A stretch of 52,123 nucleotides of DNA from an uncultured Arcobacteraceae bacterium (lineage in GTDB: Bacteria; Campylobacterota; Campylobacteria; Campylobacterales; Arcobacteraceae), in assembly GCA_964022095.1 (NCBI GenBank), contig CAXHZO010000016.1, positions 1-52,123 of the forward strand, written 5' to 3'. This document shows, piece by piece, positions 18,116-36,318 of this stretch. Below the pieces are notes generated by a model, which did not search any database, had not been told where the DNA came from, and saw only the letters and a program-made list of their open reading frames with translations. Position 1 is the first letter of the stretch; every line of letters starts with the position of its first letter. A program made the translations under genes and the position numbers.

Positions 18116-18772
18116 TTACTTCTTTATTACATCAAGAATATCAAGTGGATGAGCTACTAAAAAATCAGCACCATGCTCACTTAACTCTTTTTCATCTCTA
18201 AATCCCCATAATACACCAATACCAATCATTCCTGCATTTTTTGCTGTTTGCATATCTACCATTGTATCACCTACAAAGTAAACATCTTCAAGCTTTGCAT
18301 CAAAACTTTTTGCAATATTTATTGCTGCAATTGGATCAGGTTTTTTAGGAATATCGCTTTTTTGTCCATGAATCTCTTTGAAATTGTATTTATCAAATAG
18401 GTTATCTGCATATTGAACCGTGAACTCATGGGGTTTATTTGATAAGATTGCTAAATTACAATCAAGCTTTTCAAGCTCATCAAGTAGTTCATATATTCCA
18501 TCATATGCCTTTGTTTTTGAGTGAAGTTTTTGATCATATACAACTTTAAATCTATCTGTAACTTCCTCTTTTATTCTCTCATCATGTCCTGCTAGGGCAT
18601 TTTCAACTAAGACTGAAATTCCACCACCTACAAATTGTTTATAATCATCAATTTTGTGGATAGGTAGATTTACATCTTCTAAAACTTTATTCATACACAC
18701 TGCAATATCTTCTAATGAGTCAATTAGTGTGCCATCTAAATCAAATATAATTGTTTTTTTATTAATTGACAC
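18116..18772 (-). CDS. HAD-family hydrolase (phosphoglycolate phosphatase-like)
   Basis: FDLDGTL, SNK, KKPDP, VGDT..D; GTG start with AGGAG RBS. Confidence 0.9.
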   Translation of the reverse strand: MSINKKTIIFDLDGTLIDSLEDIAVCMNKVLEDVNLPIHKIDDYKQFVGGGISVLVENALAGHDERIKEEVTDRFKVVYDQKLHSKTKAYDGIYELLDELEKLDCNLAILSNKPHEFTVQYADNLFDKYNFKEIHGQKSDIPKKPDPIAAINIAKSFDAKLEDVYFVGDTMVDMQTAKNAGMIGIGVLWGFRDEKELSEHGADFLVAHPLDILDVIKK

Positions 18773-18834
18773 TTACTCTCCTTAATGAGTTAGTTGAATA
18801 ATACACTAAGATTTGTGATAAGTAAGTAAAGAAG

Positions 18835-19749: not shown

Positions 19750-20366
19750 GATTTTAGCTCTATAACTTCATTTGGTAATTCATTTTCATCATTTTCCTGT
19801 ATAGGGAATTTTTCAATTAAAATTGTGCTACAAGATTGAATAGCTTTTAAATACCCTTTTGATAGATGTTTCTTCTTAACATCTTTAATGAATTCATCTA
19901 CGATTTTTTCCCAGTATGAATCATCGATTTTTTTTGATATTTCTTCATCGGCTATTATTTCAACATATTTTTCATCAGAACTTACAAAAAACATAATTCC
20001 TTGATTTGTTTTTGTTCTATTTAATCCAAGATTATAAAACTGTGTAGAAGCATTTTGTGAAGCTTTTTTGTGTTTATAACTTTTTGGAAGAAGTTTAAAT
20101 ATTACTTGATCAAACTTTTCAAAAAATAAAGAGATTCCAACAAATATTAAAAGTTGAAGTTGAAGAAGTTCAAAGGCATCTTTTTGTGTAAAAAAGATAA
20201 GAAAAAAAGAGACTAAAAATAGTATAAATATATTTATAAAAGAAGCAGCATATTTATAATTACTACTTCTTTTTGTAACAACAGCTACTAGTTCAGCAGA
20301 GCTTTTTTTCTCTACATTTTCAATCTCTTTTGAGATTAATTCTTTATCTTTTTTATTTAGTTTCAT
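19746..20366 (-). CDS. TPM-domain membrane protein
   Basis: E.KSSAELV, T....G..FFVS..E.YVEI.AD, NELPN. Confidence 0.85.
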   Translation of the reverse strand: MKLNKKDKELISKEIENVEKKSSAELVAVVTKRSSNYKYAASFINIFILFLVSFFLIFFTQKDAFELLQLQLLIFVGISLFFEKFDQVIFKLLPKSYKHKKASQNASTQFYNLGLNRTKTNQGIMFFVSSDEKYVEIIADEEISKKIDDSYWEKIVDEFIKDVKKKHLSKGYLKAIQSCSTILIEKFPIQENDENELPNEVIELKS

Positions 20367-20959
20367 TAGAATTGTACTTTTGGAGCCTCTTGTTCTGTTA
20401 CACTTGCTTTAAATGTTTCTTTAATTTGAGCACTTGGATGAACAATCGCTGCAACTAGTTTTCCAGGCATTGTTCTTAACTCTGTATTGTAATATTTAAC
20501 TGCTTGTATAAAATCTTTTCTTGCAACTGTGATTCTATTTTCAGTACCTTCTAATTGTGATTGTAAAGCCATGAAGTTTTCATTTGCTTTTAAATCAGGA
20601 TACTTTTCAACTACTAACATAAGTTTTGATAAAGCACCAGAAAGTCCAGCTTGAGCATTTGCAAATTGTTGCATCATTGCTGGATTATTTAAAGTATCTG
20701 CGTTTACATTTATTTGAGAAACTTTACTTCTAGCTTCTGTAACTTCTACAAAAGTACTTTTTTCATGCTCTGCATAACCTTTTACCGTTGCAACTAAATT
20801 TGGGATTAAATCAGCTCTTCTTTTGTACTGATTTTGAACTTGTGACCATTTTTCTTTTACGTTTTCATCTAACTTTGGAATATTATTGTAGTTAGTAATT
20901 ACTAGATATACCAGTGGTATGATTATTGCAAGTACAACAAAAAAAAGTATTTTTTTCAT
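20366..20959 (-). CDS. lemA: LemA-family protein
   Basis: QYKRRADLIPNLV, EKYPDLKA, LEGTENRI.VAR. Confidence 0.93.
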   Translation of the reverse strand: MKKILFFVVLAIIIPLVYLVITNYNNIPKLDENVKEKWSQVQNQYKRRADLIPNLVATVKGYAEHEKSTFVEVTEARSKVSQINVNADTLNNPAMMQQFANAQAGLSGALSKLMLVVEKYPDLKANENFMALQSQLEGTENRITVARKDFIQAVKYYNTELRTMPGKLVAAIVHPSAQIKETFKASVTEQEAPKVQF

Positions 20960-21181
20960 GAGTTACCTTTATTAAAATTAAAATATAGTATAAAAAATAT
21001 TATTAATATAATATAAATGGTTATCTAAAAAGTTATAATATTAAGGAGTATTGGAATATAATTTTTAATCTGTGGAAAAATAACACAGTGGAAAATTTAT
21101 ACAATAAATTTCGTAATATTATAGATAATTTAAACAGATATTGAATACTATTATCAAAAAGTCAAATTAAATGGAGATAAA

Positions 21182-22834
21182 ATGAATGCATCAGATTTAT
21201 TTGTAAAAGCATTAGAAAACGAAGGTGTTGAATATATATTTGGTATTCCAGGAGAAGAAAATCTAGATTTACTAGAAGCTCTTAGAAAATCAGAACAAAT
21301 TAAACTAATTTTAACAAGACATGAGCAAGGTGCAGGTTTTATGGCTGCAACTTATGGAAGATTAACTGGTAAGGTTGGAGTATGTATCTCAACTTTAGGA
21401 CCAGGTGCAACTAACTTTGCAACAGCAGCAGCTTATGCTCAACTTGGTGGTATGCCTATGCTTATGATTACAGGTCAAAAACCTATTAAGAAATCAAAAC
21501 AAGGTAGATTTCAAATTATTGATGTTGTTGGTATGATGAAACCAATGACAAAATACGCAAAAGTTGTAGTAAATGGAAATAACTCTCCAGCTATGATTAG
21601 AGATGCATTTAAAATTGCAACAACTGAAAGACCAGGTGCAGTTCACATTGAGTTCCCTGAAGATATTTCAGCAGAAGAGGGATGTGAAGATAATGTATAT
21701 CCAGTACAAACTTTTAAATACCCAAGAGCAACTAAAGACGCGGTTTTAGATGCAATTAAAATGATTGAAAAAGCTAAAAGACCATTATTATGTATTGGTG
21801 CAGGAGCTAATAGAAATAGAATTGGAAATGCATTAACTGATTTTGTAAATGAAACTGGAATTCCATTCTTCTCTACTCAAATGGGTAAAGGTGTAATTGA
21901 TGAAAATCATAAATTATGTTTAAGTACTGCTGCATTATCAAAAGATGACTTTATTCACTGCGCAATTGACAGAGCAGATTTAATTATCAATGTTGGTCAC
22001 GATGTTATTGAAAAGCCACCATTTTTTATGGAAAATGAAGAGGGAGCTACAAAAGTATTACATGTTAACTTCTTCCCATCAGAAGTTGATGATACTTATT
22101 TCCCTCAAATGGACTTAATTGGTGATATTGCTTCAAACATTGATCAAATGACAAATGCAATTTCTAAACAAGAGCATTGGGATTTTGATTACTATCTAAG
22201 AGTTGCAGAAGATGTTAAAACACACCTTTCTAAATACTTTGGAGATACAAGATTCCCAATTTTACCACAAAAAGCAGTTAGAACTATTAGAACTATTTTA
22301 GATGATGAAGATATCGTAACACTTGATAATGGTGTATATAAGATTTGGTTTGCAAGAAACTATAGATGTGCACAACCTAATACTTTATTATTAGATAATG
22401 CACTTGCAACTATGGGTGCAGGACTTCCTTCTGCGATGGCTGCAAAAATGGTAAATCCTGATAAAAAAGTTGTTGCTGTTTGTGGTGATGGTGGATTTAT
22501 GATGAATGACCAAGAGATGGAAACTGCAGTTAGATTAGGTTTAGACTTAACTGTAATTATCTTAAATGATAATGCATATGGAATGATCAAATGGAAACAA
22601 TCTGGTATGGGGTTTGATAACTTTGGGCTTGATTTAGGTAACCCAGATTTTGTTAAATTTGCAGAAGCTTTTGGAGCACATGGTTATAGACCAGAGTCTT
22701 GTGAAGAGTTTGAAGAAACTTTAGAGAAATGTGTAAATTCAAAAGGTGTACATTTAATTGATTTAGCAGTTGATTATTCTTTAAATCACGCAATTTTAAA
22801 TGACTTATTAGCTAAAAAACAATGTATGATATAA
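21182..22834 (+). CDS. ThDP-dependent acetolactate-synthase-like protein (candidate 2-oxoglutarate decarboxylase)
   Basis: FGIPGEEN, RHEQ, TLGPGATN, DNALATMG, GDGGF...NDNAYG; no ilvH/ilvN small subunit nearby. Confidence 0.85.
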   Translation: MNASDLFVKALENEGVEYIFGIPGEENLDLLEALRKSEQIKLILTRHEQGAGFMAATYGRLTGKVGVCISTLGPGATNFATAAAYAQLGGMPMLMITGQKPIKKSKQGRFQIIDVVGMMKPMTKYAKVVVNGNNSPAMIRDAFKIATTERPGAVHIEFPEDISAEEGCEDNVYPVQTFKYPRATKDAVLDAIKMIEKAKRPLLCIGAGANRNRIGNALTDFVNETGIPFFSTQMGKGVIDENHKLCLSTAALSKDDFIHCAIDRADLIINVGHDVIEKPPFFMENEEGATKVLHVNFFPSEVDDTYFPQMDLIGDIASNIDQMTNAISKQEHWDFDYYLRVAEDVKTHLSKYFGDTRFPILPQKAVRTIRTILDDEDIVTLDNGVYKIWFARNYRCAQPNTLLLDNALATMGAGLPSAMAAKMVNPDKKVVAVCGDGGFMMNDQEMETAVRLGLDLTVIILNDNAYGMIKWKQSGMGFDNFGLDLGNPDFVKFAEAFGAHGYRPESCEEFEETLEKCVNSKGVHLIDLAVDYSLNHAILNDLLAKKQCMI

Positions 22835-22853
22835 GAAAATAGGAGAAGAGTAG

Positions 22854-24245
22854 ATGAGTAAAATAGAAGTAACATCACCATATGATGGAAGCGTAGTTGG
22901 AACAGTACCATACGGATCAGTAACAGAAGTAGAAAATGCATTAGAGTTAGCAAGAAAAACTTTTGATGACCATAAAAATGCATTGCCAGCATATAAAAGA
23001 GTAGAGATTTTAGAGAATGTAGTAAAAATTATGTCTTCTCAAATTGATGAACTAACAAAACTTTGCGCAAGTGAAGGTGGAAAACCTTGGATTGATTCAC
23101 AAGTAGAAGTACATAGAGCGATCAATGGTGTAAAATTAGCAATTGAAGCTTTAGGAGCTAGAGAAGGTAAACAAATAGCTATGGGTCATACTGCATCAAG
23201 TGCAAATAGAATGGCTTATACTTTAAAAGAACCAATTGGTGTTGTTGCAGCAATTTCAGCTTTTAATCACCCCCTAAACTTAGCAATCCATCAAGTAATT
23301 CCTGCAATTGCTGTTGGTTGTTCTGTAATTATTAAACCAGCAACTCAAACTCCAATGAGTGCAATTAGAGTAGTAGAAATCTTAGAAGAAGCAGGTCTTC
23401 CAAAAGGTTGGGCTCAAGCTGTTGTTTGTGATAGAGAAGGTGGTGAATTATTAGCTACATCTGCTAAAGTAAATGCCTTAACTTTTATTGGTTCTGGTAA
23501 AGTTGGTTGGTACTTAAACTCTAAAGTAGCACCAGGTACAAGAGTAGCATTAGAACATGGTGGTGTTGCACCTGTAATTGTAGAAGCTGATGCAAATATT
23601 GATGAATTAATTCCTTCAATTGGTAAAGGTGGATTCTACCATGCTGGTCAAGTTTGTGTTTCTGTTCAAAGAGTATTTGTTCATGAATCAATAGTTGATG
23701 AGGTAGCAAGTAAACTTGCTGATTATGCTTCTAAATTAATAGTAGGTGATCAATTAGACCCTAAAACAGAAGTAGGACCACTAATTAACCATAATGAAAC
23801 AAATAGAGTTGAAGAATGGGTAAATGAAGCAGTAACTAAAGGTGGAAAAATCTTAACTGGTGGAAAAAGAATCACAGATTCAACTTTTGAGCCAACTGTT
23901 ATTTTAAACCCAGCAGATGATGCACTAGTTTCAACTAAAGAAGTTTTTGGACCAGTTGTTTGTATCTATTCTTATTCTGATATAGAAGAAGCATTTGATA
24001 GAGCAAATGCCCTAGAAGTATCATTCCAAGCAGCCGTATTTACAAAAGATTTAGATACAGCTTTAAAAGCAGTAAAAAGACTTAATGGAACAGCAGTAAT
24101 GGTAAATGATCATACAGCATTTAGAGTAGATTGGATGCCATTTGGTGGAGCAAAAGCTTCAGGACTTGGACTTGGAGGAATACATCATTCAATGGAAGAG
24201 TGTACTAATGAGAAATTGATGGTAATAAAATCATCAGTTTTATAA
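22854..24245 (+). CDS. Aldehyde dehydrogenase, copy 1 (candidate succinate-semialdehyde dehydrogenase)
   Basis: AFNHP, LEHGG, GQVCVSVQR (catalytic Cys), EVFGP, MPFGG. Confidence 0.9.
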   Translation: MSKIEVTSPYDGSVVGTVPYGSVTEVENALELARKTFDDHKNALPAYKRVEILENVVKIMSSQIDELTKLCASEGGKPWIDSQVEVHRAINGVKLAIEALGAREGKQIAMGHTASSANRMAYTLKEPIGVVAAISAFNHPLNLAIHQVIPAIAVGCSVIIKPATQTPMSAIRVVEILEEAGLPKGWAQAVVCDREGGELLATSAKVNALTFIGSGKVGWYLNSKVAPGTRVALEHGGVAPVIVEADANIDELIPSIGKGGFYHAGQVCVSVQRVFVHESIVDEVASKLADYASKLIVGDQLDPKTEVGPLINHNETNRVEEWVNEAVTKGGKILTGGKRITDSTFEPTVILNPADDALVSTKEVFGPVVCIYSYSDIEEAFDRANALEVSFQAAVFTKDLDTALKAVKRLNGTAVMVNDHTAFRVDWMPFGGAKASGLGLGGIHHSMEECTNEKLMVIKSSVL

Positions 24246-24271
24246 AATAAACTCAAAGATAGTATAACTAG

Positions 24272-24303
24272 AAGCTAAGGTTTTAAAAACCTTAGCTTTT
24301 TTT
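24272..24303. terminator. Intrinsic terminator after ALDH copy 1
   Basis: AAGCTAAGGTTTT-A-AAAACCTTAGCTT followed by a T tract. Confidence 0.8.
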
Positions 24304-24313
24304 ATTTCTATTT

Positions 24314-25048
24314 TTAACGGGAATCATGCATATATCCCATTCCATAGATATTCTTTATTATTAAACCAGGGGCTTTTTTTCGTAGGCGATATATAAGACT
24401 TTTTAGATGAGTAATATCAGGAGTTAAGTCATATTCATCGGCCCAAATGATATCTATAAGTTTATCAACAGTACAGATTTTTCCATTGTCATTTAGTATT
24501 GTTTCTACAAAACGAATTTCATTTTTTGTTAGTTCTATTGATTTATCGTTCTCTAGTAATTTCTTTTTCTTTTTATCCCAAATTAAAGACTCATTTATTC
24601 TTACAATGCTTTCATCATTATTTAAACGGTCGTGATAGATTAAATTACATAACTTAAATATATCTTCTAAAAAAGTAGAATAATCAATAGGTTTTGTGAA
24701 AAATTGGTGTATTCCTAAATTTACTAAAGGTAGTAAGTAGTTAAATTCATTTCGGGCAGATAAAATTATAACTAATTGGTCTTTTTTAATTTTATATATA
24801 GCATCAATTAACTCTACTCCATCAAAATTAGGCATTTTTATATCTGAAATAATTAAATCATAATATTTATCTGTATTTTCATAATGAGCATTATATTTAT
24901 TTAATGCATCTTGTCCATCAACAGCAGTAGTGACTTTTGGAAAAATATCTTGGAGTAGTTCAGAAAACTCTTTTCTAAAGTCTGTATCATCTTCAACAAA
25001 AAGTATGTGTAGATCTTTAGTATATTTTTTCAATAATCCGTAATCCAT
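24314..25048 (-). CDS. OmpR-family response regulator
   Basis: VEDD, SDIKMP..DG, KP; winged helix LTKNE...LKSLIYRLRKK...GMGY. Confidence 0.92.
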   Translation of the reverse strand: MDYGLLKKYTKDLHILFVEDDTDFRKEFSELLQDIFPKVTTAVDGQDALNKYNAHYENTDKYYDLIISDIKMPNFDGVELIDAIYKIKKDQLVIILSARNEFNYLLPLVNLGIHQFFTKPIDYSTFLEDIFKLCNLIYHDRLNNDESIVRINESLIWDKKKKKLLENDKSIELTKNEIRFVETILNDNGKICTVDKLIDIIWADEYDLTPDITHLKSLIYRLRKKAPGLIIKNIYGMGYMHDSR

Positions 25049-25173
25049 TAGAGTCCTTAAAACGAAAATATTAATTGTCTGTAGTCTTCTTTGAAGGGTT
25101 TTATTTGAATTATACTATCATTTTGTTTCTTATAAGTATGTATAAGATGATAGTTTATATACACAAGCAGTAA

Positions 25174-25205
25174 GTTATTATTTGACTACTATTTAGTGTT
25201 ATACT
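25174..25205 (+). promoter_or_regulatory. Regulator box plus extended -10 for the kinase operon
   Basis: GTTATTATTTGACTACT then TGtTATACT; same architecture at 28996-29027. Confidence 0.55.
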
Positions 25206-25230
25206 ACTTAGAAAAAACAAAAGAGAAATT

Positions 25231-26424
25231 ATGATGGATAAGAAAGTTTTAAAAGATATCACCGTTCTTTATGTTGAAGATGAAGCAATAATTCAAGAAG
25301 GAATAACAGAAACACTAAGTCTTTTTGAAATAAATGTAATCTGTGCACAAAATGGCCAAGAGGGATTAGAAACTTTTAAAAATTCACAAGAAGAAATAGA
25401 TTTAATTTTAACAGATATCAAAATGCCAAAACTAGATGGCATAGGAATGATAGAAAAAATTAGACAATTTAATAAAGATATCCCCGTAATTATTACAACT
25501 GCCCATCAAGAAACAAGTTTTCTAATGCAATCAATTGAGTTAAATATAAGTGCTTATGTATTAAAGCCAATTGATATTTATAAATTAGAAGAGTCATTAG
25601 TAAAAGCAATTGAATCAAAAGTATTAAGAGAAGAGTTAATACTAAAAAATGAGAAACTAGAAATAGAAATTGCTAAAAACGAAGAGAAACAAAAGATTAT
25701 GGAAACACAATCAAGATTCGCTGCAATGGGAGAAATGATTAGTATGATTGCTCATCAATGGAGACAGCCATTAGCTTCAATTGGAACTGCTTCTTTTAAT
25801 TTAAAGTATAAATTATTATCAGGAAAGTTTGATTTAAACACGAAAGAAGGAAGAGAACAGCAAGCAGAATTTTTTAGTAACAAATTAGATGAAATAGAGT
25901 TTTATGTTCAAAATCTCACAACTACAATAGATGATTTTAGAAATTTTTATAAAAGTGATAAAGTAATTGTTAATAAAACAATTGATATTCCATTACAAAA
26001 TAGTATAAAAATATTAAGAAAAGATTTTAAAACTAACAATATAGATATTGAACTAAAGTTAAATAGTAAAAATCAAATTAATATCTATGAAAATGAAATA
26101 ATGCATGTTTTAATCAATATATTAAAAAATGCTCAAGATAAGTTTTTAGATAAAAATACTAAAAATGCAAAAATACAAATAGAAACTCAAGATATAAAAA
26201 ATGCAGTTAAAATCGATATTTATGATAATGGTGGAGGAATAGAAAAAGATAATCTCGATGTAATCTTTGAACCATATTTTTCTACAAAAAAAGAGAAAAA
26301 TGGAACAGGAATTGGGCTTTATATGTCAAAAATTATAATTGAAAATAATCATCAAGGAAAAATATATGCTTCAAATATTAAAGAAGGTGTTTGTTTTTCT
26401 ATAATTTTAGATTGTATGTTATAA
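25231..26424 (+). CDS. Cytoplasmic hybrid receiver-histidine kinase
   Basis: N-terminal REC domain (VEDE, TDIKMP), H box IAHQWRQP, NILKNA, DNGGG, GTGIGL; no TM segment. Confidence 0.92.
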   Translation: MMDKKVLKDITVLYVEDEAIIQEGITETLSLFEINVICAQNGQEGLETFKNSQEEIDLILTDIKMPKLDGIGMIEKIRQFNKDIPVIITTAHQETSFLMQSIELNISAYVLKPIDIYKLEESLVKAIESKVLREELILKNEKLEIEIAKNEEKQKIMETQSRFAAMGEMISMIAHQWRQPLASIGTASFNLKYKLLSGKFDLNTKEGREQQAEFFSNKLDEIEFYVQNLTTTIDDFRNFYKSDKVIVNKTIDIPLQNSIKILRKDFKTNNIDIELKLNSKNQINIYENEIMHVLINILKNAQDKFLDKNTKNAKIQIETQDIKNAVKIDIYDNGGGIEKDNLDVIFEPYFSTKKEKNGTGIGLYMSKIIIENNHQGKIYASNIKEGVCFSIILDCML

Positions 26425-26451
26425 TCAAAAAAATTTATTAGGGAGTTTTAT

Positions 26452-28923
26452 TTGAAGTTTATTGTTTATCTTTTACTTTTTTTAAGTTGTTTATATTCTG
26501 ATACCACAGTATTAACACAAAAAGAAAAGCAGTGGATAAAAAATAATAGTATTAAAGTAGGAGTTACAGATTTATTCCCTTTAAGTTATTTAAATAAAGA
26601 TTACCAAAAAGACGGTTTTGCAATTGATATTTTAGATCTTATTATAAAAAAATTCCAAATTAAAACTAAAACAGTAGATATTAATCAAGGTAATATTGAG
26701 TTTGCATTTGAAAATGGTGAAATAGATTTAATACCTATTGTTAATAATTCAAAAACAAAAAGTGAATTTGGTGAATACTCTTCTGAAATACTAAAAATAA
26801 AAAGAGTTCTTTTTGTTAAAAAAGAGCAAAGTAATATTAATTCCTTTGAAGATTTAGCTAGCAAAAAAGTTGCAGTAACAAATGAAGAAGAAATAGTATT
26901 AAATTTAAAGAAAACTCACTCAAATATACAAACAATAGAGACTAAAGATATTGAGCATTCAGTTACTATGCTTTTAACTGATAAAGTTGATGCATTGATT
27001 GCTTCACCTATTATTATTCAAAAATTTTTAGAAGATAATTTGATTATTGATTTAAAAGCAGTTCCTTCAGTTACTTTTGAACCTTCAAACCTATATTTTA
27101 TGACTAACAAAAGTAAGCCAGAGCTTCAATCAATTATAGAAAAAGGCTTAAATTTAATTTCAATAAAAGAAGAAAAAGAGCTATTTGATAAATGGTTTTT
27201 AAAAGATCTTGCAGAATTACCTATAATTTTCACAAAAGAAGAGTCAAAATATTTACAAAAAAAATCAAAAATAAATCTATGTGTAGATCCTGATTGGATG
27301 CCATATGAAAAAGTAGAAGACCATAAACATGTAGGTATAGTAGCAGATTTTATGAAAGATTTTCAAAAGAAAATTGGCATACCTTTAGAACTTGTGGAAA
27401 CAAAAGATTGGACGCAGGCTTTAAAGTATGTTGAAAATAGAAATTGTGATGTTCTTTCTTTAGTGATGGATATGGAATCAAGACGTCATTATATGAACTT
27501 CACAAAACCTTATGTCACAGCACCTTTGGTACTAGTTACAAAAAGGAATGTTAGTTTTATTAGTGATTTAAAAGATTTAAAAAACAAAAAAATTGGTATT
27601 CAAAAAAACTTTGCTTCAAATGAAATTATCAGAACCAACTATCCAAACTTTGAAGTTGTAGATGTAGCTCATTTAAGAGATGGATTAAAAAAAGTAGAAA
27701 GGGGCGAACTTTTTGGGCAAGTTACAACTCATCTAAATGTAGCATATGCTTTCCAAGAAGAGTTTTATGGAAGCTTACAAATATCTGGTAAATTTGATGA
27801 ACAATGGCACTTGTCAGTTGGTGTTAGAAATGATGATTTACTTTTATTAAATATATTTGAGAAAATAGTTAATTCAATAAGTGATGAAACAAGACAAAGA
27901 ATTATTAATAAATGGGTTTCGGTTAAGTATGAAAAAAGTATCGATTACAAACTGTTTTGGAGTATTATTTCATTTTTAGTATTTGTTTTATTATCTATTT
28001 CTTACACATATATTCTTCAAAGAAGATATATTAACAAATTAACAAAAGTTAAAAAAGAAATAGAGATGTTAAATAGTACTTTAGAGAAGAAAGTACAATC
28101 AAGAACACAAGAGCTAGAGTTATCAAATACTAAATTAAAATTAAAAACTCAAGAGTTAGAACACTTGAATAATACATTAGATATAAGAATTAAAGAAGAG
28201 ATTAATAATAGAAAAAAACAAGAACAACTTTTAATCCAACAATCAAAACTTGCAGAAATGGGAGAGATGATTAGTATGATTGCTCACCAATGGAGACAGC
28301 CTCTTAGTGCTCTTAGTACAATTATTCAAAATATTCACCTACGACACTCTTTAGGAAAGTTAGATAAAGAGTATCTTGATAAACAAAGACTGTTAAGTAA
28401 TGCCTTAACAGAAAAGATGTCAATGACTATTGATGATTTTAGAAACTTTTTTAAACCAAATAAAGAAAAACAAGAATTCTCAATAAAAGATGCAATTCAA
28501 CAAACAATTTTTCTTATTGATGATAGCTTTAAAAGCAGTAGTATTAAAATTGAAAATCAAATTTCAGATGATGTTATATTAAATGGTTTTCAAAGTGAAC
28601 TATCTCAAGTTTTACTAAATATCATTACTAATTCTAAAGATGCTTTTTTAGAAAACAATATTGAAAATCCAAGGATTACTGTAAAAACAAAAAAAGTTCA
28701 AACGCATATAAAAATATTAGTTTGTGATAATGCTGGAGGAATTAATGAATCTATCATTAATAAAGTATTTGAACCTTACTTTACTACTAAAGACAGTTAC
28801 AATGGAACTGGACTTGGTTTATATATGAGTAAAATGATTATTGAACAAAATATGAATGGACAACTAAGTGTAAAAAATATTGACCAAGGAGTGCAGTTTA
28901 CAATCTATATCCCCATTAATTAA
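26452..28923 (+). CDS. Membrane sensor histidine kinase with two periplasmic solute-binding (family 3) domains
   Basis: TTG start, signal peptide, two PBP2-type repeats (LTQKEKQWI..., FTKEESKYL...DPDWMPYE), TM segment, coiled coil, IAHQWRQP, GTGLGL. Confidence 0.9.
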   Translation: MKFIVYLLLFLSCLYSDTTVLTQKEKQWIKNNSIKVGVTDLFPLSYLNKDYQKDGFAIDILDLIIKKFQIKTKTVDINQGNIEFAFENGEIDLIPIVNNSKTKSEFGEYSSEILKIKRVLFVKKEQSNINSFEDLASKKVAVTNEEEIVLNLKKTHSNIQTIETKDIEHSVTMLLTDKVDALIASPIIIQKFLEDNLIIDLKAVPSVTFEPSNLYFMTNKSKPELQSIIEKGLNLISIKEEKELFDKWFLKDLAELPIIFTKEESKYLQKKSKINLCVDPDWMPYEKVEDHKHVGIVADFMKDFQKKIGIPLELVETKDWTQALKYVENRNCDVLSLVMDMESRRHYMNFTKPYVTAPLVLVTKRNVSFISDLKDLKNKKIGIQKNFASNEIIRTNYPNFEVVDVAHLRDGLKKVERGELFGQVTTHLNVAYAFQEEFYGSLQISGKFDEQWHLSVGVRNDDLLLLNIFEKIVNSISDETRQRIINKWVSVKYEKSIDYKLFWSIISFLVFVLLSISYTYILQRRYINKLTKVKKEIEMLNSTLEKKVQSRTQELELSNTKLKLKTQELEHLNNTLDIRIKEEINNRKKQEQLLIQQSKLAEMGEMISMIAHQWRQPLSALSTIIQNIHLRHSLGKLDKEYLDKQRLLSNALTEKMSMTIDDFRNFFKPNKEKQEFSIKDAIQQTIFLIDDSFKSSSIKIENQISDDVILNGFQSELSQVLLNIITNSKDAFLENNIENPRITVKTKKVQTHIKILVCDNAGGINESIINKVFEPYFTTKDSYNGTGLGLYMSKMIIEQNMNGQLSVKNIDQGVQFTIYIPIN

Positions 28924-29115: not shown

Positions 29116-30158
29116 AAACAAAAAGGAAAGATAGATGCTAAAACTAATTAGTAATATGAAAAGAAGTATGATGGCAACATCAATAATAGCATTGTTAAGT
29201 GTAATGGCTATTGTAGATACTGCATCAGCAGCACAAAACTGGAGGTTTTCAAACCTATACGGAAGAGGGACAGCATTTGGTGATTTATATCAACAATTAG
29301 CAAAAGATATAGAGAAAAACACAAATGGTGAAGTAAAAGTACAAGTTTTATTCTCAGGTGAAGGTGTAGGAACATCAGGATTATTAGGTGCAACAAAATC
29401 AGGTCTAATTACAATGGCAGCACCATTTCAATCAATGCACGCAGGAGAATTACCAGCAGGTGTAGTAGAAATTGGACTTCCAGGTGGAACAGCAGATACA
29501 GATAAATTAAATAAATTATTCCATGAAGATGGATGGGATAAAATATTAGAAAAAGCATATGGATCTCAAGGATTAGTATGGTTAGCGCCATATATCCAAC
29601 CACCAGTATATATAATCACTAAAAAACCAATTGAAAAAATAGAAGACTTTCAAGGATTAAAAATTAGAGCTCCAGGAGCATATGGTAAATTCTTAAGAAA
29701 CTTAGGAGCATCGCCAGTATCTTTAGCGTGGAGTGAGATTTATACAAGTTTAGCAACAGGTGTAATTGATGGATCAATTGGATCAAATATGATTGACCAT
29801 AGAGATGGTAACCATGTAGAAGTTGCAAAGTATATGTATAAACTTCCATTAGCAGGAGCACAAGTATTACCAATCGTAGTAAATAGAAATGCATGGAATA
29901 AATTAAGTGATGAAGCGAAAGCTGGAGTAAGAGCTGCAACAGTAGCACATGCAAAATCACAATTAGAGATGTCAAAGAAATGGGAAAAAGAAGCAGTAAC
30001 TCAAATGGAAGCTAAAGGCTTAAAGTGGTCACCAGCTCCAAGTGAAGCAGATAAAGCTGCATGGAAAAAGGCAGGTGCTGGATTATGGGATGAGTATTCA
30101 TCAAAAGATAAATACAGCAAACAATTAATTGATGTATTAAGAAATCAAGCTAAATAAT
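29116..30158 (+). repeat. 1043-bp direct repeat, copy A (RBS plus dctP)
   Basis: Matches 31552-32594 (offset 2436); only 4 differences seen, at 30049, 30068, 30070 and 30109. Confidence 0.95.
29135..30157 (+). CDS. dctP: TRAP transporter substrate-binding protein, copy 1
   Basis: Signal peptide, TNGEVKVQV, DFQGLKIRAPG, EIYTSLATGVIDG. Confidence 0.92.
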   Translation: MLKLISNMKRSMMATSIIALLSVMAIVDTASAAQNWRFSNLYGRGTAFGDLYQQLAKDIEKNTNGEVKVQVLFSGEGVGTSGLLGATKSGLITMAAPFQSMHAGELPAGVVEIGLPGGTADTDKLNKLFHEDGWDKILEKAYGSQGLVWLAPYIQPPVYIITKKPIEKIEDFQGLKIRAPGAYGKFLRNLGASPVSLAWSEIYTSLATGVIDGSIGSNMIDHRDGNHVEVAKYMYKLPLAGAQVLPIVVNRNAWNKLSDEAKAGVRAATVAHAKSQLEMSKKWEKEAVTQMEAKGLKWSPAPSEADKAAWKKAGAGLWDEYSSKDKYSKQLIDVLRNQAK

Positions 30159-30191
30159 TAGGATTTTTCAATGAATAAAAAGGTGCAACTA

Positions 30192-31475
30192 ATGAGTAAC
30201 AATGAATTACAAGATAGAAAAAATAAAGTAATTGCAAGAGGACAAGGAAACGCTTATCCAGTTTATGTAGAAAAAGCAAAAAATGCTGAAATTTGGGATG
30301 TAGAAGGAAATAGATTTATTGATTTTGGTACAGGTATTGCTGTTTGTAATACTGGACATTCTCATCCAAAAATTGTTGAAGCTGTTAAAAATCAAGTTGA
30401 GAAGTTTTCTCATACTTGTGTAATGGTAAACCCTTATGAAGTTGCAGTTGAATTAGCAGAAAAGTTAACAAAACTTGCACCAGGTGATAGCGAAAAGAAA
30501 GCAATTTTTGTAACAACTGGAGCAGAAGCTGTTGAAAACTGTGTGAAAATTGCAAGAGCTCATACGAAAAGAAGAGGTGTAATTGCATTTAATGGTGGTT
30601 TCCATGGTAGAACAAATTTAACTATGGGATTAACTGGAAAAATTGCTCCATATAAAATTGGATTTGGACCATTCCCTGGTGATATTTATCACCTACCTTA
30701 TCCAACAAAATTAAATGGTACATCTGTAAAAGATAGTTTAGTTGCCTTAAAAAATCTTTTTAAAGTAGATATTTTACCTGAAGATGTTGCAGCAATTATT
30801 GTAGAACCTGTTCAAGGTGAAGGTGGATTTTATGAAACACCAGCAGAACTTTTACAACAATTAAGAGCAATTTGTGATGAACATGGAATTTTATTAATTT
30901 TAGATGAGATTCAAACTGGATTTGGAAGAACTGGAAAAATGTTCAGTGCTGAGCATTCAGGTGTTGAAGCAGATTTAATGACTATGGCCAAAGGAATTGC
31001 AGGTGGTTATCCACTATCAGCAGTTGTTGGAAAATCTGAAATTATGGACTCTCCAATTCCTGGTGGATTGGGTGGAACTTATGGTGGTTCACCAGTTGCT
31101 TGTGCTGCTGCACTTGCTGTATTAGAAATTATTGAAGAAGAAGATTTAATTAATAGATCAAATCAAATTGGAGATATTTTTAATAGAAGATTAAATGATT
31201 TAAAAACTAAATTTCCAGATTTAATTTCAGATGTTAGAAATAAAGGTTCTATGATTGCTTTAGAATTAATGAAAGATGGAAATCCAGAAAATGCAAATGT
31301 TGAATTAACAAAAGAAATTACTGCAAATGCAGCAAAATATGGATTAGTACTTTTATCTTGTGGATTTAATGCAAACGTAATTAGATTCTTACCAGCTTTA
31401 ACTACTAGTGATGAAATAGTAAATGAAGGACTAGATAAGTTTACTGAATTATTTGAAAGTTTAGTAGCAAAGTAA
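30192..31475 (+). CDS. gabT: 4-aminobutyrate--2-oxoglutarate transaminase
   Basis: IWDVEG.RFIDF, HTC.MV.PYE, TGAEAVEN, EPVQGEGGF, DEIQTGFGRTG, MAKGIAGG, PGGLGGTYGG; start set at ATG 30192 after an AAAGG RBS. Confidence 0.92.
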   Translation: MSNNELQDRKNKVIARGQGNAYPVYVEKAKNAEIWDVEGNRFIDFGTGIAVCNTGHSHPKIVEAVKNQVEKFSHTCVMVNPYEVAVELAEKLTKLAPGDSEKKAIFVTTGAEAVENCVKIARAHTKRRGVIAFNGGFHGRTNLTMGLTGKIAPYKIGFGPFPGDIYHLPYPTKLNGTSVKDSLVALKNLFKVDILPEDVAAIIVEPVQGEGGFYETPAELLQQLRAICDEHGILLILDEIQTGFGRTGKMFSAEHSGVEADLMTMAKGIAGGYPLSAVVGKSEIMDSPIPGGLGGTYGGSPVACAAALAVLEIIEEEDLINRSNQIGDIFNRRLNDLKTKFPDLISDVRNKGSMIALELMKDGNPENANVELTKEITANAAKYGLVLLSCGFNANVIRFLPALTTSDEIVNEGLDKFTELFESLVAK

Positions 31476-31551: not shown

Positions 31552-32594
31552 AAACAAAAAGGAAAGATAGATGCTAAAACTAATTAGTAATATGAAAAGA
31601 AGTATGATGGCAACATCAATAATAGCATTGTTAAGTGTAATGGCTATTGTAGATACTGCATCAGCAGCACAAAACTGGAGGTTTTCAAACCTATACGGAA
31701 GAGGGACAGCATTTGGTGATTTATATCAACAATTAGCAAAAGATATAGAGAAAAACACAAATGGTGAAGTAAAAGTACAAGTTTTATTCTCAGGTGAAGG
31801 TGTAGGAACATCAGGATTATTAGGTGCAACAAAATCAGGTCTAATTACAATGGCAGCACCATTTCAATCAATGCACGCAGGAGAATTACCAGCAGGTGTA
31901 GTAGAAATTGGACTTCCAGGTGGAACAGCAGATACAGATAAATTAAATAAATTATTCCATGAAGATGGATGGGATAAAATATTAGAAAAAGCATATGGAT
32001 CTCAAGGATTAGTATGGTTAGCGCCATATATCCAACCACCAGTATATATAATCACTAAAAAACCAATTGAAAAAATAGAAGACTTTCAAGGATTAAAAAT
32101 TAGAGCTCCAGGAGCATATGGTAAATTCTTAAGAAACTTAGGAGCATCGCCAGTATCTTTAGCGTGGAGTGAGATTTATACAAGTTTAGCAACAGGTGTA
32201 ATTGATGGATCAATTGGATCAAATATGATTGACCATAGAGATGGTAACCATGTAGAAGTTGCAAAGTATATGTATAAACTTCCATTAGCAGGAGCACAAG
32301 TATTACCAATCGTAGTAAATAGAAATGCATGGAATAAATTAAGTGATGAAGCGAAAGCTGGAGTAAGAGCTGCAACAGTAGCACATGCAAAATCACAATT
32401 AGAGATGTCAAAGAAATGGGAAAAAGAAGCAGTAACTCAAATGGAAGCTAAAGGCTTAAAGTGGTCACCAGCTCCAAGTGAAGCGGATAAAGCTGCATGG
32501 AAAGAAGCAGGTGCTGGATTATGGGATGAGTATTCATCAAAAGACAAATACAGCAAACAATTAATTGATGTATTAAGAAATCAAGCTAAATAAT
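31552..32594 (+). repeat. 1043-bp direct repeat, copy B
   Basis: Partner of 29116-30158. Confidence 0.95.
31571..32593 (+). CDS. dctP: TRAP transporter substrate-binding protein, copy 2
   Basis: Identical to copy 1 except one K-to-E change near the C-terminus. Confidence 0.92.
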   Translation: MLKLISNMKRSMMATSIIALLSVMAIVDTASAAQNWRFSNLYGRGTAFGDLYQQLAKDIEKNTNGEVKVQVLFSGEGVGTSGLLGATKSGLITMAAPFQSMHAGELPAGVVEIGLPGGTADTDKLNKLFHEDGWDKILEKAYGSQGLVWLAPYIQPPVYIITKKPIEKIEDFQGLKIRAPGAYGKFLRNLGASPVSLAWSEIYTSLATGVIDGSIGSNMIDHRDGNHVEVAKYMYKLPLAGAQVLPIVVNRNAWNKLSDEAKAGVRAATVAHAKSQLEMSKKWEKEAVTQMEAKGLKWSPAPSEADKAAWKEAGAGLWDEYSSKDKYSKQLIDVLRNQAK

Positions 32595-32604
32595 CGGATA
32601 TATC

Positions 32605-33138
32605 ATGAAAAAAATCCTACAACTTATATGTTCAGTTATTGATAAGATTATTATGTTGTTAGGTAAAGGGGCATCATTTATGATGCCCATCCTTGCCTTC
32701 ATCGTTGTTTATGAAGTAGTTGCAAGATATCTATTTGATGCCCCAACAATTTGGGCATATGATTTATCACTATTTCTATTTGGTTATATAGCAGCTTTAG
32801 GAGGAGCTTATGCTCAACAAAAAAGAGCCCACATAAACGTGGATATACTTTATTTATCAGTTTCTCCTAAAGTTAAAAATATTTTTAATCTAATTTCTTA
32901 TTCTCTTGGTATCTTCTTTCTTATCATTATTCTTTATATGAGTATTACAAAATTTAATGAAGCAATAGAGTTTGATTATAGAAGACAAAGTGAATGGGCT
33001 CCAGCTATGTGGCATTTTTGGGTTATGTTAGGAATTGCAAGTGTTTTATTTATCATGCAATTATTTAGAGACATGATAGGAGAAGCATATCATTTATTTA
33101 CTGGAACAGAATTAATAGAAAAGGAGAATAAAAAATGA
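32605..33138 (+). CDS. dctQ: TRAP transporter small permease
   Basis: YEVVARYLFDAPTIWA, HINVD; 4 TM. Confidence 0.92.
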   Translation: MKKILQLICSVIDKIIMLLGKGASFMMPILAFIVVYEVVARYLFDAPTIWAYDLSLFLFGYIAALGGAYAQQKRAHINVDILYLSVSPKVKNIFNLISYSLGIFFLIIILYMSITKFNEAIEFDYRRQSEWAPAMWHFWVMLGIASVLFIMQLFRDMIGEAYHLFTGTELIEKENKK

Positions 33139-34463
33139 TTGGTGTAGAACTATTGACAGGTATTTTATTACTTTGTATTTTATTATTCTTTGCACTTGGT
33201 GCACCAGTAGGTTTAGCTCTTGGTGGAATCGCTATGTTAATAGGATATTTTACTTGGGGAGATGGAATTTTTAATGTAATTCCTACAACAGTAGAAGCGA
33301 CTTTTTTTAGTTTTATTTTATTAGCTATTCCTTTATATATTTATATGGGACAACTCTTAACCCACTCAGGTATTGGTGATTCTATGTTCGCTGCTAGTCA
33401 AATGATGATCGGTAAAATTAGAGGTTCACTTGCTATTAGTGTTGTATTTATCTGTTCTATGATTGGTGCAATGGTTGGTATTATTGGTGCTGGAATTATG
33501 AGTTCAGGGAGTATTGCTTTAAAGCCAATGCTTGATGCAGGTTATAATAGAAGACTAGCTTTAGGAACTATTATGGCAGGAGGTGCTTTAGGTATCTTAA
33601 TTCCACCTAGTATTCCAATGATTATGTTTGCAGCTTCTACTCAAAACTCTGTTGGTAGGATGTTCTTAGGTGCGATGGTTCCTGCATTAGTTACTATATT
33701 CTTTTTGATTTTATATATTGTAATTAGTTCTAAGTTAAAACCTGAAAATGCCCCACTTTTAAGTGAAACAACACAAGGTTTACCAGAACTTACTGGAAAA
33801 GAAAAATTCAAAGTATTTAGAAATGGTTTTTTCTCTATTGGTTTAATTTTTGTTGTTTTAGGAAGTATTATTTCAGGTATTGCAACACCAACTGAATCAG
33901 GTGCATTAGGAGTAGCAGGTGCTATTATTCTTGCATTTTTCTTTAAGAAGTTTAAAGTTGAAATGTTCAGAACAGTAGGAATGCAAACTACAATTTTAGT
34001 AAGTGTTGCTATGTGGATTATTCTTGGAGCATCAGTGTTTAGTAATTTCCATTTACTTATGGGAATTCAAGGAATGATTGCAGATTTTACAAATGGATTA
34101 GATTTACCTCCAATTGCAATTATTATTATGTTCCAATTAATTATGTTATTACTTGGATTTATTATTGATGAGTTTATTATTGTATTAATGTGTGCGCCAT
34201 TATTTACACCAATTGCAGTTTCATTAGGATATGACCCAATTTGGTTTGGTGTTTTAATGATTATTAATATTTTAATTGCAGTACAAACTCCACCTTATGG
34301 ATTTGCACTATTTTATTTAAAAGGGATTGCTCCTGCTGGTGTTGGTATGGGTGAAATTTATAAGTCTGTAACTCCATTTATTTTAATTAATTTAACAGTA
34401 CTTATAATTTGTATGGTTTTTCCAGAGATAGTACTTTGGCTACCAAATAAAGTCATGGGATAA
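33135..34463 (+). CDS. dctM: TRAP transporter large permease
   Basis: AIPLYI.MG, LGILIPPSI, ATPTES, TPPYG. Confidence 0.93.
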   Translation: MIGVELLTGILLLCILLFFALGAPVGLALGGIAMLIGYFTWGDGIFNVIPTTVEATFFSFILLAIPLYIYMGQLLTHSGIGDSMFAASQMMIGKIRGSLAISVVFICSMIGAMVGIIGAGIMSSGSIALKPMLDAGYNRRLALGTIMAGGALGILIPPSIPMIMFAASTQNSVGRMFLGAMVPALVTIFFLILYIVISSKLKPENAPLLSETTQGLPELTGKEKFKVFRNGFFSIGLIFVVLGSIISGIATPTESGALGVAGAIILAFFFKKFKVEMFRTVGMQTTILVSVAMWIILGASVFSNFHLLMGIQGMIADFTNGLDLPPIAIIIMFQLIMLLLGFIIDEFIIVLMCAPLFTPIAVSLGYDPIWFGVLMIINILIAVQTPPYGFALFYLKGIAPAGVGMGEIYKSVTPFILINLTVLIICMVFPEIVLWLPNKVMG

Positions 34464-34473: not shown

Positions 34474-34908
34474 ATGTTTAAAAAAATATTAGTACCTATT
34501 CATTTAGCGTATAAAAAGAATCATAAAAAATTATTTGCAGGTGCATTAAATGTACTTGATGATGATGGAGAATTTTCATTACTTTATGTAAACACAAATA
34601 GAAATCATGGTTCGGTTTATCCTATACTTGATGATAATAGTGAAGAAAATTTTAATCATTCTGCTTACGAAGAGTTAAAACAGATTATAGATTCACATGA
34701 TTTACCAAAAGATAAATTATCAATGAATATTAGAAATGGCTCAGTTCATAGAGAAATATTAGAAGAAGCAAGAAGAATTGGTGCAGATGCAATTGTAATG
34801 ATGGCAACAAAGCCAGGAGTAGGAAACTATTTTATTAGTAGTACAGCAGAGCGTGTAATTAGACATGCTAATTGTTCTGTATTTGTTATTAGACTTACTG
34901 GTTATTAA
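34474..34908 (+). CDS. Universal stress protein (TeaD-like position)
   Basis: MFKKILVP...ADAIVM...STAERVIRHANCSVFV. Confidence 0.9.
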   Translation: MFKKILVPIHLAYKKNHKKLFAGALNVLDDDGEFSLLYVNTNRNHGSVYPILDDNSEENFNHSAYEELKQIIDSHDLPKDKLSMNIRNGSVHREILEEARRIGADAIVMMATKPGVGNYFISSTAERVIRHANCSVFVIRLTGY

Positions 34909-34926: not shown

Positions 34927-36318
34927 ATGAGTAAAATAGAAGTAACATCACCATATGATGGAAGTGTAGTAGGTGAAGTGCCATTTAGTACATATGAAGA
35001 AGTGCAAGCTGCGATAGATACAGCATATGAAAAGTTTGAAGATAAAGACAACTGGATTCCAAAATATAAAAGAATAGAAATACTAGAGAAACTTATGGAA
35101 ATCATGAGTTCTCAAGTAGAAGAATTAACAATTCTTTGTGCAAGTGAAGGTGGAAAACCATATATGGACTCAAAAGTAGAAATACAAAGAGCAATAAATG
35201 GTATTAAAATAGCAATTGAACAAATAGGAGCTATTGAAGGTCAAGAAATAGCAATGGGTCATACAGCAAGTAGTGCAAATAGAATGGCTTATACAATGAA
35301 AGAACCAATCGGTGTAGTAGCAGCAATTAGCGCATTTAATCACCCCTTCAACCTTGCAGTTCATCAAGTAATTCCAGCAATCGCAGTAGGATGTCCAGTA
35401 ATTATAAGACCAGCAACTCAAACTCCAATGAGTGCAGTAAAATTAATAGAACTTTTAGAAGAAGCAGGACTTCCAAATGGTTGGGCACAAGCAGTAGTTT
35501 GTGATAGAACAGCAGGTGAATTATTAGTAACAAGCCCTAAAACAGCATTCTTTACTTTTATTGGTTCAGGACCAGTTGGTTGGTACTTAAATTCTAAAAG
35601 CTCACCTGGAACAAGAAGTGCCCTAGAACATGGTGGAGTAGCACCAGTAATTGTAGAACCAGATGCGGACTTTGCTTCAATGGTTCCAGATTTAGGTAAA
35701 GGTGGATTCTACCATGCAGGTCAAGTTTGTGTTTCTGTTCAAAGAATTTTTGCTCATGAATCAATCGCTGATAAATTAGCAGATGAATTAACAACTTACG
35801 CTAAAAACCTTGTAGTAGGTGATCAATTAGATCCTAAAACAGAAGTAGGACCACTAATTAATCATGATGAAGTAAATAGAGTAGAAGAATGGGTAAATGA
35901 AGCAGTACAAAAAGGTGGAAAAATACTAACTGGTGGTAAAAGAATTTCAGATTCATTATATGAACCAACAGTAATTGTTAATCCTTCTGATGATGCAATT
36001 ATTTCTCAAAAAGAGATATTTGGGCCAGTAGTAGTTGTTTACTCATATAAAACATTAGATGAAGCAATAACAAGAGCGAATCAATTAGATGTATCGTTCC
36101 AAGCAGCAGTATTTACAAAAAATATTGATGTAGCATTAAAATCAGTAAAAAGACTAAATGCAACAGCAGTAATGGTAAATGATCATACAGCATTTAGAGT
36201 AGATTGGATGCCATTTGGAGGAGCTAAGACATCAGGATTAGGATTAGGTGGAATACCAGATTCAATGAATGAAATGCAAAACCAAAAGATGATGGTTATT
36301 AAATCTCCTTCTTTATAA
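34927..36318 (+). CDS. Aldehyde dehydrogenase, copy 2 (candidate succinate-semialdehyde dehydrogenase)
   Basis: Colinear 463-aa paralog of 22854-24245; last gene of the gabT operon. Confidence 0.9.
   Translation: MSKIEVTSPYDGSVVGEVPFSTYEEVQAAIDTAYEKFEDKDNWIPKYKRIEILEKLMEIMSSQVEELTILCASEGGKPYMDSKVEIQRAINGIKIAIEQIGAIEGQEIAMGHTASSANRMAYTMKEPIGVVAAISAFNHPFNLAVHQVIPAIAVGCPVIIRPATQTPMSAVKLIELLEEAGLPNGWAQAVVCDRTAGELLVTSPKTAFFTFIGSGPVGWYLNSKSSPGTRSALEHGGVAPVIVEPDADFASMVPDLGKGGFYHAGQVCVSVQRIFAHESIADKLADELTTYAKNLVVGDQLDPKTEVGPLINHDEVNRVEEWVNEAVQKGGKILTGGKRISDSLYEPTVIVNPSDDAIISQKEIFGPVVVVYSYKTLDEAITRANQLDVSFQAAVFTKNIDVALKSVKRLNATAVMVNDHTAFRVDWMPFGGAKTSGLGLGGIPDSMNEMQNQKMMVIKSPSL

Follow-up and report, generated by a model that had tools for sequence, protein, structure and literature searches.

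A ThDP-dependent enzyme paired with an ALDH21-like aldehyde dehydrogenase as a putative coenzyme A-free route from 2-oxoglutarate to succinate in Arcobacteraceae

The window analyzed here is a stretch of 52,123 nucleotides from an uncultured Arcobacteraceae bacterium (assembly GCA_964022095.1, contig CAXHZO010000016.1, positions 1 to 52,123), and it carries at 21,182–24,245 two adjacent genes, one for a thiamine diphosphate (ThDP)-dependent enzyme of a family named acetolactate synthase and one for an aldehyde dehydrogenase (ALDH). Judged from their sequences, the two enzymes probably form a coenzyme A (CoA)-free route from 2-oxoglutarate through succinic semialdehyde to succinate. Below, P0001 denotes the ThDP enzyme, P0002 or ALDH1 its partner, ALDH2 a paralog of that partner farther along the window, and G000 the host genome. 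P0001 would decarboxylate 2-oxoglutarate non-oxidatively to succinic semialdehyde and CO2, ALDH1 would oxidize the semialdehyde to succinate with NAD(P)+, and ALDH2 would perform the same oxidation on semialdehyde derived from imported 4-aminobutyrate (GABA) by the transaminase GabT. The pair could then act as an oxygen-insensitive alternative to 2-oxoglutarate:acceptor oxidoreductase (OOR) and succinyl-CoA synthetase (SucCD). A preliminary description of this DNA had already read the pair as such a shunt, and that reading is now supported in silico by the family of the ThDP enzyme, the semialdehyde-binding residues of the ALDH, the absence of SucCD from the host, the distribution of the pair among genomes and its linkage to sucCD. 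Family membership, gene order, residue conservation, genome distribution and sucCD linkage were all observed directly.

The missing step has a history in this group of bacteria. Arcobacter genome papers have noted since 2007 the lack of a succinyl-CoA synthetase, which leaves the citric acid cycle looking broken. The A. butzleri genome paper gives SucCD as missing and regards the cycle as incomplete; the same gap is described for A. thereius. G000, with a completeness of 99.99%, encodes OorDABC (four subunits, all above cut-offs), a Por-type oxidoreductase and a succinate dehydrogenase/fumarate reductase flavoprotein. Searches of this genome returned no match for the E1 component of 2-oxoglutarate dehydrogenase (sucA) or for SucD, a sole SucC match of 26.6 bits, and no match for CoA-transferases of the AcetylCoA_hydro type (PF02550) or class I (PF01144). 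With OOR present and a succinyl-CoA synthetase absent, the pair is the only recognizable route for carbon from 2-oxoglutarate to succinate in the tricarboxylic acid (TCA) cycle of G000.

P0001 belongs to the family of the cyanobacterial 2-oxoglutarate decarboxylases (OgdA or KGD). Its best model is NCBIfam NF006187 (PRK08322; 861.4 bits against a cut-off of 509), and it stays under the cut-offs of all models for AlsS and for biosynthetic acetohydroxyacid synthases (the AlsS model NF006378, second best overall, 448.3 versus 510; TIGR02418, 408.8 versus 551.1; TIGR00118, 383.9 versus 538.35). The Pfam domains TPP_enzyme_N, M and C are all found. NF006187 is not fully specific, as B. subtilis exceeded its cut-off in a control search. 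Identity to P0001 ranges from 82 to 96% over the best 120 database matches, the named top ones being Arcobacter arenosus (91% identity) and other Arcobacteraceae; wherever a source supplied a name in this set, it was “acetolactate synthase large subunit” or something very similar. A wider search covered 1.84 billion cluster representatives, from which the best 150 matches were taken. Nearly all of 20 representatives whose names were looked up are called just “acetolactate synthase,” and among the first 50 of the 98 representatives of 500–600 residues, NF006187 was the best family in all 50 and exceeded its cut-off in 45. One copy of P0001 (P0031, 87% identical) is listed in EukProt as part of a eukaryote's transcriptome assembly (Trinity contig) and most likely represents bacterial contamination of that data set.

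The connection to assayed enzymes was made through an archaeal representative, P0139, which carries at a constant offset 16 of the 17 active-site residues published for the KGD of Microcystis (MaKGD). A protein search with P0139 gave no cyanobacterial sequence, the named relatives among the 120 matches listed being archaeal only; a tblastn search of plasmids likewise gave no cyanobacteria and brought up haloarchaeal pairs of an acetolactate synthase (ALS)-like gene and a succinic semialdehyde dehydrogenase (SSADH) gene. An alignment led by P0139 was then used to collect 80 loci from named genomes. Of these loci, 27 form a single cyanobacterial clade, 43–46% identical to P0001, and 15 of the 27 carry all 17 MaKGD residues at a constant offset, several of them at the published numbering, which identifies the cyanobacterial loci as orthologs of the assayed KGDs. 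One of them (L050) contains, letter for letter, the N-terminal motif given for OgdA in the preliminary description, and P0001 departs from that motif once, with I for L. Related genes were reportedly noted in methanogens and other anaerobes by Zhang and Bryant in 2011.

Trees were built with FastTree on 190 rows and with IQ-TREE under LG+C20 on 68 rows picked from those 190. In both, AlsS-like and IlvI-like proteins are set apart from the NF006187 group. Clade A (19 rows; Shimodaira–Hasegawa-like approximate likelihood ratio test, SH-aLRT, 100) unites P0001 with other Arcobacteraceae, one fusion protein and most of the metagenomic representatives. Clade B (SH-aLRT 86) holds the cyanobacterial KGDs, a proteobacterial and planctomycete sister clade, methanogens and Chloroflexota. 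The phylogeny proposed as a check thus came out in favor of the shunt reading, P0001 grouping with the cyanobacterial KGD family and apart from AlsS and IlvB, with the qualification that it lies in a sister clade of the assayed enzymes and is not nested among them.

The partner gene is the second line of evidence. In a sample of 121 Arcobacteraceae genomes, each at least 90% complete, the ThDP gene occurs in 82, and 77 of these have a P0002-type ALDH as the next gene downstream; in at least two of the five exceptions (G303 and G329), the contig ends at the ThDP gene. In other phyla the arrangement recurs at 10 of the 80 collected loci, where the ALDH immediately downstream is of the P0002 type (48–54% identical); every one of the ten belongs to the sister clade of the cyanobacterial KGDs. 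Among the 27 cyanobacterial loci, 22 carry an ALDH of the cyanobacterial type just upstream. On a Haloarcula plasmid, the first 4 nt of the ALS-like gene are shared with a gene of yet another ALDH type, annotated “NAD-dependent succinate-semialdehyde dehydrogenase.” Fusions of a ThDP enzyme with an ALDH are seen in two metagenomic proteins, P0123 (1016 aa) and P0137 (1019 aa); in P0123, the ThDP part is 60% identical to P0001 and the ALDH part 57% identical to P0002. Pairing and fusion with an ALDH imply that the ThDP enzyme releases an aldehyde, which fits a decarboxylase and does not fit a synthase. The ThDP family has other fusions as well: P0141 (677 aa) and P0194 (907 aa), of which one has a C-terminal cyclic-nucleotide-binding domain (a 16-member cluster) and the other an N-terminal NAD-dependent epimerase/dehydratase domain.

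The active site of P0001 was compared with that of MaKGD through an alignment-based residue table, as the constant-offset check (11 of 17 for P0001) undercounts because of indels. The catalytic glutamate and the GDG...D motif are kept (E48, G435-D436-G437-G438 and D463, corresponding to E50, G434–G437 and D462 in MaKGD). Clades A and B have in common E25-E26-N27 (within PGEEN), K236, K387, A409, M411, D463, Y466, K or H at 472, and Q473. At the same columns AlsS-like proteins have A/G25, K26, A236, Y/Q387, Q409 and Q472, and IlvI-like proteins have G25, Q387, G409, L466 and W472. K387 and K472 of P0001 correspond to K386 and K471 of MaKGD, the lysines proposed to bind 2-oxoglutarate, and A409 corresponds to A408, which is kept.

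ALDH1 matches the Pfam family Aldedh with 436.7 bits, and its best solved relatives are the uncharacterized ALDHs 5kf0, 5j6b and 5jry and the moss ALDH21 (5mz5). ALDH21 is an NADP+-dependent SSADH (review), in which, according to a 2026 preprint citing the original paper, the carboxylate of succinic semialdehyde is bound by Arg121, Arg457 and Tyr296. These three are R139, R475 and Y314 of the 5mz5 chain, a single offset of 18 fitting all of them, and a HMMER alignment to 5mz5 places R88, Y262 and R424 of P0002 at Arg121, Tyr296 and Arg457. The catalytic residues of P0002 are C268, E234 and N138, with LEHGG at residue 233. Twelve P0002-type ALDHs were compared, among them ALDH2, the ALDH domains of the two fusion proteins and eight partners encoded in other phyla, and all 12 keep the arginine, tyrosine and arginine as well as the catalytic Cys, Glu and Asn. 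The three binding columns are occupied by K, L/I/V and S in the ALDHs that accompany the cyanobacterial enzymes. The preliminary description had related this LEHGG-type subfamily to ALDH21 and to SSADH activity, and the conserved binding residues are consistent with this. Its analogy to the cyanobacterial OgdA and SsaD holds insofar as the partner looks like an SSADH, and fails insofar as the ALDH is not of the cyanobacterial SsaD type.

ALDH2 offers a second context for the same subfamily. As had been described, a colinear paralog of ALDH1 closes a gabT operon about 12 kb away: it starts 12,073 nt downstream and is identical at 342 of 463 positions (74%) with no gaps. The operon runs DctP-GabT-DctP-DctQ-DctM-Usp-ALDH2, and its GabT passes the TIGR00700 equivalog model (cut-off 506.65). 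No GabD- or Sad-type SSADH was found in G000, where the remaining ALDHs comprise a 2-hydroxymuconic semialdehyde dehydrogenase, an ExaC-like protein, PutA and an unclassified short ALDH-like open reading frame on C14; ALDH2 is thus the sole candidate to oxidize the semialdehyde made by GabT. As a search for glutamate decarboxylase in G000 gave no match, the gabT operon would serve imported GABA and not an internal shunt. In G262, a genome of the same genus, the window's island is absent, and 26 nt past the ThDP gene begins an ALDH gene whose product shares 95% identity with ALDH2 and 74% with ALDH1. The presence of an ALDH2 ortholog directly after the ThDP gene suggests that the GabT-associated and ThDP-associated ALDHs are interchangeable. 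In another genome, G309, the two ALDHs (L109, G309:C1:114500-134400; 2111–3499 and 14866–16254) are 83.8 and 83.6% identical to ALDH1 and 77.75% each to ALDH2, and the two copies appear from these values to be nearly identical to each other. It seems that some genomes homogenize the paralogs and others, like this one (74% identity in the window), let them drift apart.

The distribution of the ThDP gene is largely complementary to that of sucC, which was found in 83 of the 121 Arcobacteraceae genomes. Both genes occur in 47 genomes, the ThDP gene only in 35, sucC only in 36, and neither at the search threshold in 3, two of which have sucC fragments at contig ends. Of the 38 genomes in which sucC gave no match at that threshold, 35 thus carry the ThDP gene. 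Five genera lack sucC in every sampled member, and the ThDP gene is present in 33 of their 34 genomes beside G000; five further genera lack the ThDP gene in every sampled member, and all 13 of their genomes have sucC. Of the 47 genomes with both genes, 19 have them less than 3 kb apart, and in 7 more the distance is 5–19 kb. Orders confirmed with NCBIfam models in three genera are ThDP-ALDH-sucC-sucD (L103 and L105) and sucC-sucD-ThDP-ALDH (L104). In G309 the whole island of the window is syntenic from the ThDP gene to ALDH2, and sucC starts about 140 nt past ALDH2. A sample of the wider phylum (251 genomes) yielded the ThDP gene in 10 of its 11 genomes from the same family and, outside that family, in a single genome (G229), which also has sucC.

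The closest known system is the cyanobacterial bypass, in which OgdA/KGD (EC 4.1.1.71; A2770 of Synechococcus sp. PCC 7002, with A2771; Sll1981 of Synechocystis; MaKGD of Microcystis) works with the SSADH SsaD. The likenesses comprise membership in NF006187 at 43–46% identity, the PGEEN motif, the catalytic Glu, GDG...D, the two proposed 2-oxoglutarate lysines, a decarboxylase gene adjoining an ALDH gene, the same proposed chemistry and a genome without 2-oxoglutarate dehydrogenase. P0001 differs in belonging to the separate clade A with 5 of the 17 MaKGD positions changed; its partner ALDH is of another subfamily (24–28% identical) with different substrate-binding residues and lies downstream, so that the gene order is reversed, and the host also has OorDABC. 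With the moss ALDH21 (PpALDH21A1; PDB 5mz5, 5mz8 and 5n5s), P0002 shares the residues that bind the semialdehyde carboxylate and the catalytic Cys, Glu and Asn, although ALDH21 is distant, eukaryotic, NADP+-dependent and stands alone, and uncharacterized ALDHs match P0002 equally well. AlsS and IlvB/IlvI share with P0001 the three-domain ThDP fold and the annotated name; P0001 differs from them in falling below their model cut-offs, in lacking a small-subunit or alsD partner, in its active-site residues and in being paired or fused with an ALDH. In the gammaproteobacterium Thiomicrorhabdus, KGD and SSADH have been proposed from genomes to complete an oxidative TCA cycle (PMC9751133). A Thiomicrorhabdus locus (L097) falls in clade B, sister to the cyanobacterial KGDs, whereas P0001 falls in clade A; for both hosts the proposed route is deduced from genomes only.

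The substrate (2-oxoglutarate), product, cofactor and physiological role of the pair are what we infer from these observations, and several points weigh against the inference. P0001 lies outside the clade of assayed KGDs, clade A has no characterized member, and the join of clades A and B has an SH-aLRT of only 80. The closest solved structure (13bb_A, 512 bits) carries the depositors' name “acetolactate synthase”; solved AlsS structures score 277–330 bits. By alignment, five of the 17 MaKGD positions differ in P0001 (V382N, A384V, H385Y, L467M and Q254, the last with an uncertain alignment), the substituted residues in P0001 numbering being N383 (V in the cyanobacterial enzymes), 385, Y386 (H there) and M468 (L there). 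The published roles of the 17 residues come from docking on a model and not from a crystal structure (PMC10418658). Two cyanobacterial KGDs that are more than 80% identical differ about 500-fold in activity in the same paper, so that family membership is no guarantee of useful activity. For the ALDH, 305.7 bits to the assayed ALDH21 are too distant for its substrate to be transferred by similarity alone. The complementary distribution consists of raw counts uncorrected for shared ancestry, and the sucC-less genera could reflect a single loss. Both routes are kept in 47 of the 121 genomes, which means that the pair is not simply a replacement for SucCD, and G311 (99% complete) truly has neither sucC nor the ThDP gene, with LemA adjoining a lone ALDH.

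Action on another dicarboxylic 2-oxo acid appears unlikely. The pair might, for instance, convert 2-oxoadipate through glutarate semialdehyde to glutarate, with the “gabT” operon acting on 5-aminovalerate, or oxaloacetate to malonate semialdehyde. The two-arginine pocket of the ALDH calls for a distal carboxylate on the aldehyde and does not fix its chain length, clade A has no assayed member, the pocket of P0001 differs at 383, 385, 386 and 468, and GabT-type and 5-aminovalerate transaminases are close relatives. Succinate as the product is nevertheless indicated by sucCD flanking the pair in 19 of 47 genomes and by the presence of the pair in 35 of the 38 sucC-less ones; GabT scores above the cut-off of the 4-aminobutyrate transaminase equivalog, and the ALDH residues match those of an enzyme assayed on succinic semialdehyde.

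It is similarly improbable that the pair carries out the proposed chemistry merely as a side route, in glutamate or GABA catabolism or in aldehyde detoxification under the neighboring two-component system, with no significant TCA flux and with the SucCD gap bridged otherwise or left open. The position of the pair within a conserved island with sensor kinases, GABA uptake and a GabT operon would agree with such a role, as would the co-occurrence of both routes in 47 of 121 genomes and the absence of both from G311, and the A. butzleri paper itself regards the cycle as incomplete. However, the GABA island is absent around the pair in most genomes: a second ALDH copy is present in only 13 of the 83 genomes with a P0002-type match, and the pair has different neighbors at L106. 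Retention of the pair in 35 of 38 sucC-less genomes and the 82–96% identity over the best 120 matches, moreover, suggest strong selection.

Least likely of all, and very improbable, is a genuine acetolactate synthase or other carboligase with the ALDH as an unrelated neighbor: the NCBI model name, the names of the best 120 matches and the label of 13bb_A all read acetolactate synthase and NF006187 admits B. subtilis above its cut-off, but P0001 is under all AlsS/IlvB model cut-offs and unlike the AlsS-like and IlvI-like groups at residues 25–27, 236, 387, 409 and 472, G000 has its own ilvI/ilvH and gave no match for acetolactate decarboxylase (alsD, PF03306), and an ALDH partner in 77 of 82 genomes plus two fusions implies a free aldehyde, which a synthase does not release.

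If the CoA-free route from 2-oxoglutarate to succinate is real, the citric acid cycle would be closed in Arcobacter lacking SucCD, corrections would be due in metabolic models of these food- and water-borne bacteria, and the name “acetolactate synthase large subunit” would be wrong for many database entries. Two groups, an uncharacterized KGD-family clade and a bacterial ALDH21 branch, would then each acquire a testable function. The sucCD linkage and complementary distribution make this answer to the Arcobacter TCA gap testable. The pathway itself is known, and what would be new is the host phylum, together with an uncharacterized decarboxylase clade and an ALDH21-type enzyme in place of the cyanobacterial partner ALDH. 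No paper linking Arcobacter-type bacteria to a 2-oxoglutarate–succinate bypass was found in the literature searched, within which the suggestion that the bypass is undescribed in Campylobacterota holds. A broader proposal is possible, and is put forward tentatively: a clade-A decarboxylase with an ALDH21-type SSADH may be the main oxygen-insensitive link between 2-oxoglutarate and succinate in Arcobacteraceae, supplying the TCA step noted as missing since 2007 in SucCD-less species such as A. butzleri and an aerobic CoA-free route beside the ferredoxin-linked OOR/SucCD where both are kept. Its expression might be set by the neighboring amino-acid-sensing two-component system, and it might help explain why these bacteria tolerate air better than other Campylobacterota.

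The ThDP and ALDH genes lie 19 nt apart, exactly as had been claimed from the open reading frames, and the ribosome-binding site in the spacer together with the terminator-like hairpin after ALDH1 makes 21,182–24,245 read as a two-gene operon (Table 1). The earlier remark that the ThDP enzyme has no regulatory small subunit or ilv neighbors was confirmed: no ALS small subunit or ilv gene was detected by NCBIfam and Pfam among the 17 proteins scanned at 17,293–36,318. The separate ilvIH whose presence was to be checked exists as a canonical ilvI/ilvH pair of large and small subunits on another contig (C2:284005-286193), and the only small-subunit copy in G000 is the one adjoining ilvI there.

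Table 1. Features of the window from the ThDP gene to the end of the gabT operon.
Feature	Position	Strand	Evidence
ThDP-dependent enzyme P0001, 550 aa, putative 2-oxoglutarate decarboxylase, NF006187/PRK08322 clade A	21182..22834	+	NF006187, Pfam, trees
Intergenic spacer, 19 nt, with AGGAG ribosome-binding site	22835..22853	+	Sequence read directly
ALDH1 (P0002), 463 aa, ALDH21-like, putative succinic semialdehyde dehydrogenase	22854..24245	+	Aldedh, 5mz5 match, R88/Y262/R424
Intrinsic-terminator-like hairpin at operon end	24270..24300	+	14-pair stem, then T run
OmpR-type response regulator	24314..25048	-	Response_reg and Trans_reg_C; position conserved in G309
Receiver–histidine kinase hybrid	25231..26424	+	Response_reg and HATPase_c; conserved in G309
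Sensor histidine kinase with periplasmic SBP_bac_3 domains	26452..28923	+	Pfam; conserved in G309
Tripartite ATP-independent periplasmic (TRAP) transporter solute-binding protein DctP, copy 1	29135..30157	+	DctP 140.7 bits
4-Aminobutyrate:2-oxoglutarate transaminase GabT, predicted to yield succinic semialdehyde	30171..31475	+	TIGR00700 569 bits
TRAP solute-binding protein DctP, copy 2	31571..32593	+	Family match; near-identical to copy 1
TRAP permease subunits DctQ (32605-33138) and DctM (33135-34463)	32605..34463	+	DctQ 97.5 bits; DctM 234.2 (Pfam), 299.2 (TIGR00786)
Universal stress protein	34474..34908	+	Usp 68.3 bits
ALDH2, gap-free ALDH1 paralog, putative SSADH, last gene of gabT operon	34927..36318	+	Pairwise comparison; same R, Y, R residues

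Metatranscriptome contigs of relatives (wastewater and plastic biofilm; 80% likeness) cover both genes of the pair, and one bridges their junction. Summed word depths over both genes are in the thousands and fall sharply just outside the operon on both sides (window 21,114–24,305), where the fall may mark transcript ends or merely flanks that are unconserved among relatives. Such contigs cannot show a transcript, and DNA carry-over is possible, so they were not counted as evidence; the strain itself was not found in the RNA runs (word shares 0.05–0.08).

The two DctP genes flanking gabT are near-identical direct repeats, identical at 1019 of 1023 nt, and the identity runs 19 nt further upstream (29,116–30,158 and 31,552–32,594). 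The same DctP-GabT-DctP layout is found in G309, where both copies are approximately 86–87% identical to both window copies; this equal distance suggests gene conversion of DctP within each genome. The LemA of G311 (L113, G311:C92:8000-15000, 3484–5589) matches in two overlapping pieces and may contain a frameshift. Finally, G000 carries at C5:81416-85965 (L021, 1416–5965) a catechol meta-cleavage cluster with catechol 2,3-dioxygenase, 2-hydroxymuconic semialdehyde dehydrogenase, 2-oxopent-4-enoate hydratase and acylating acetaldehyde dehydrogenase, all above cut-offs.

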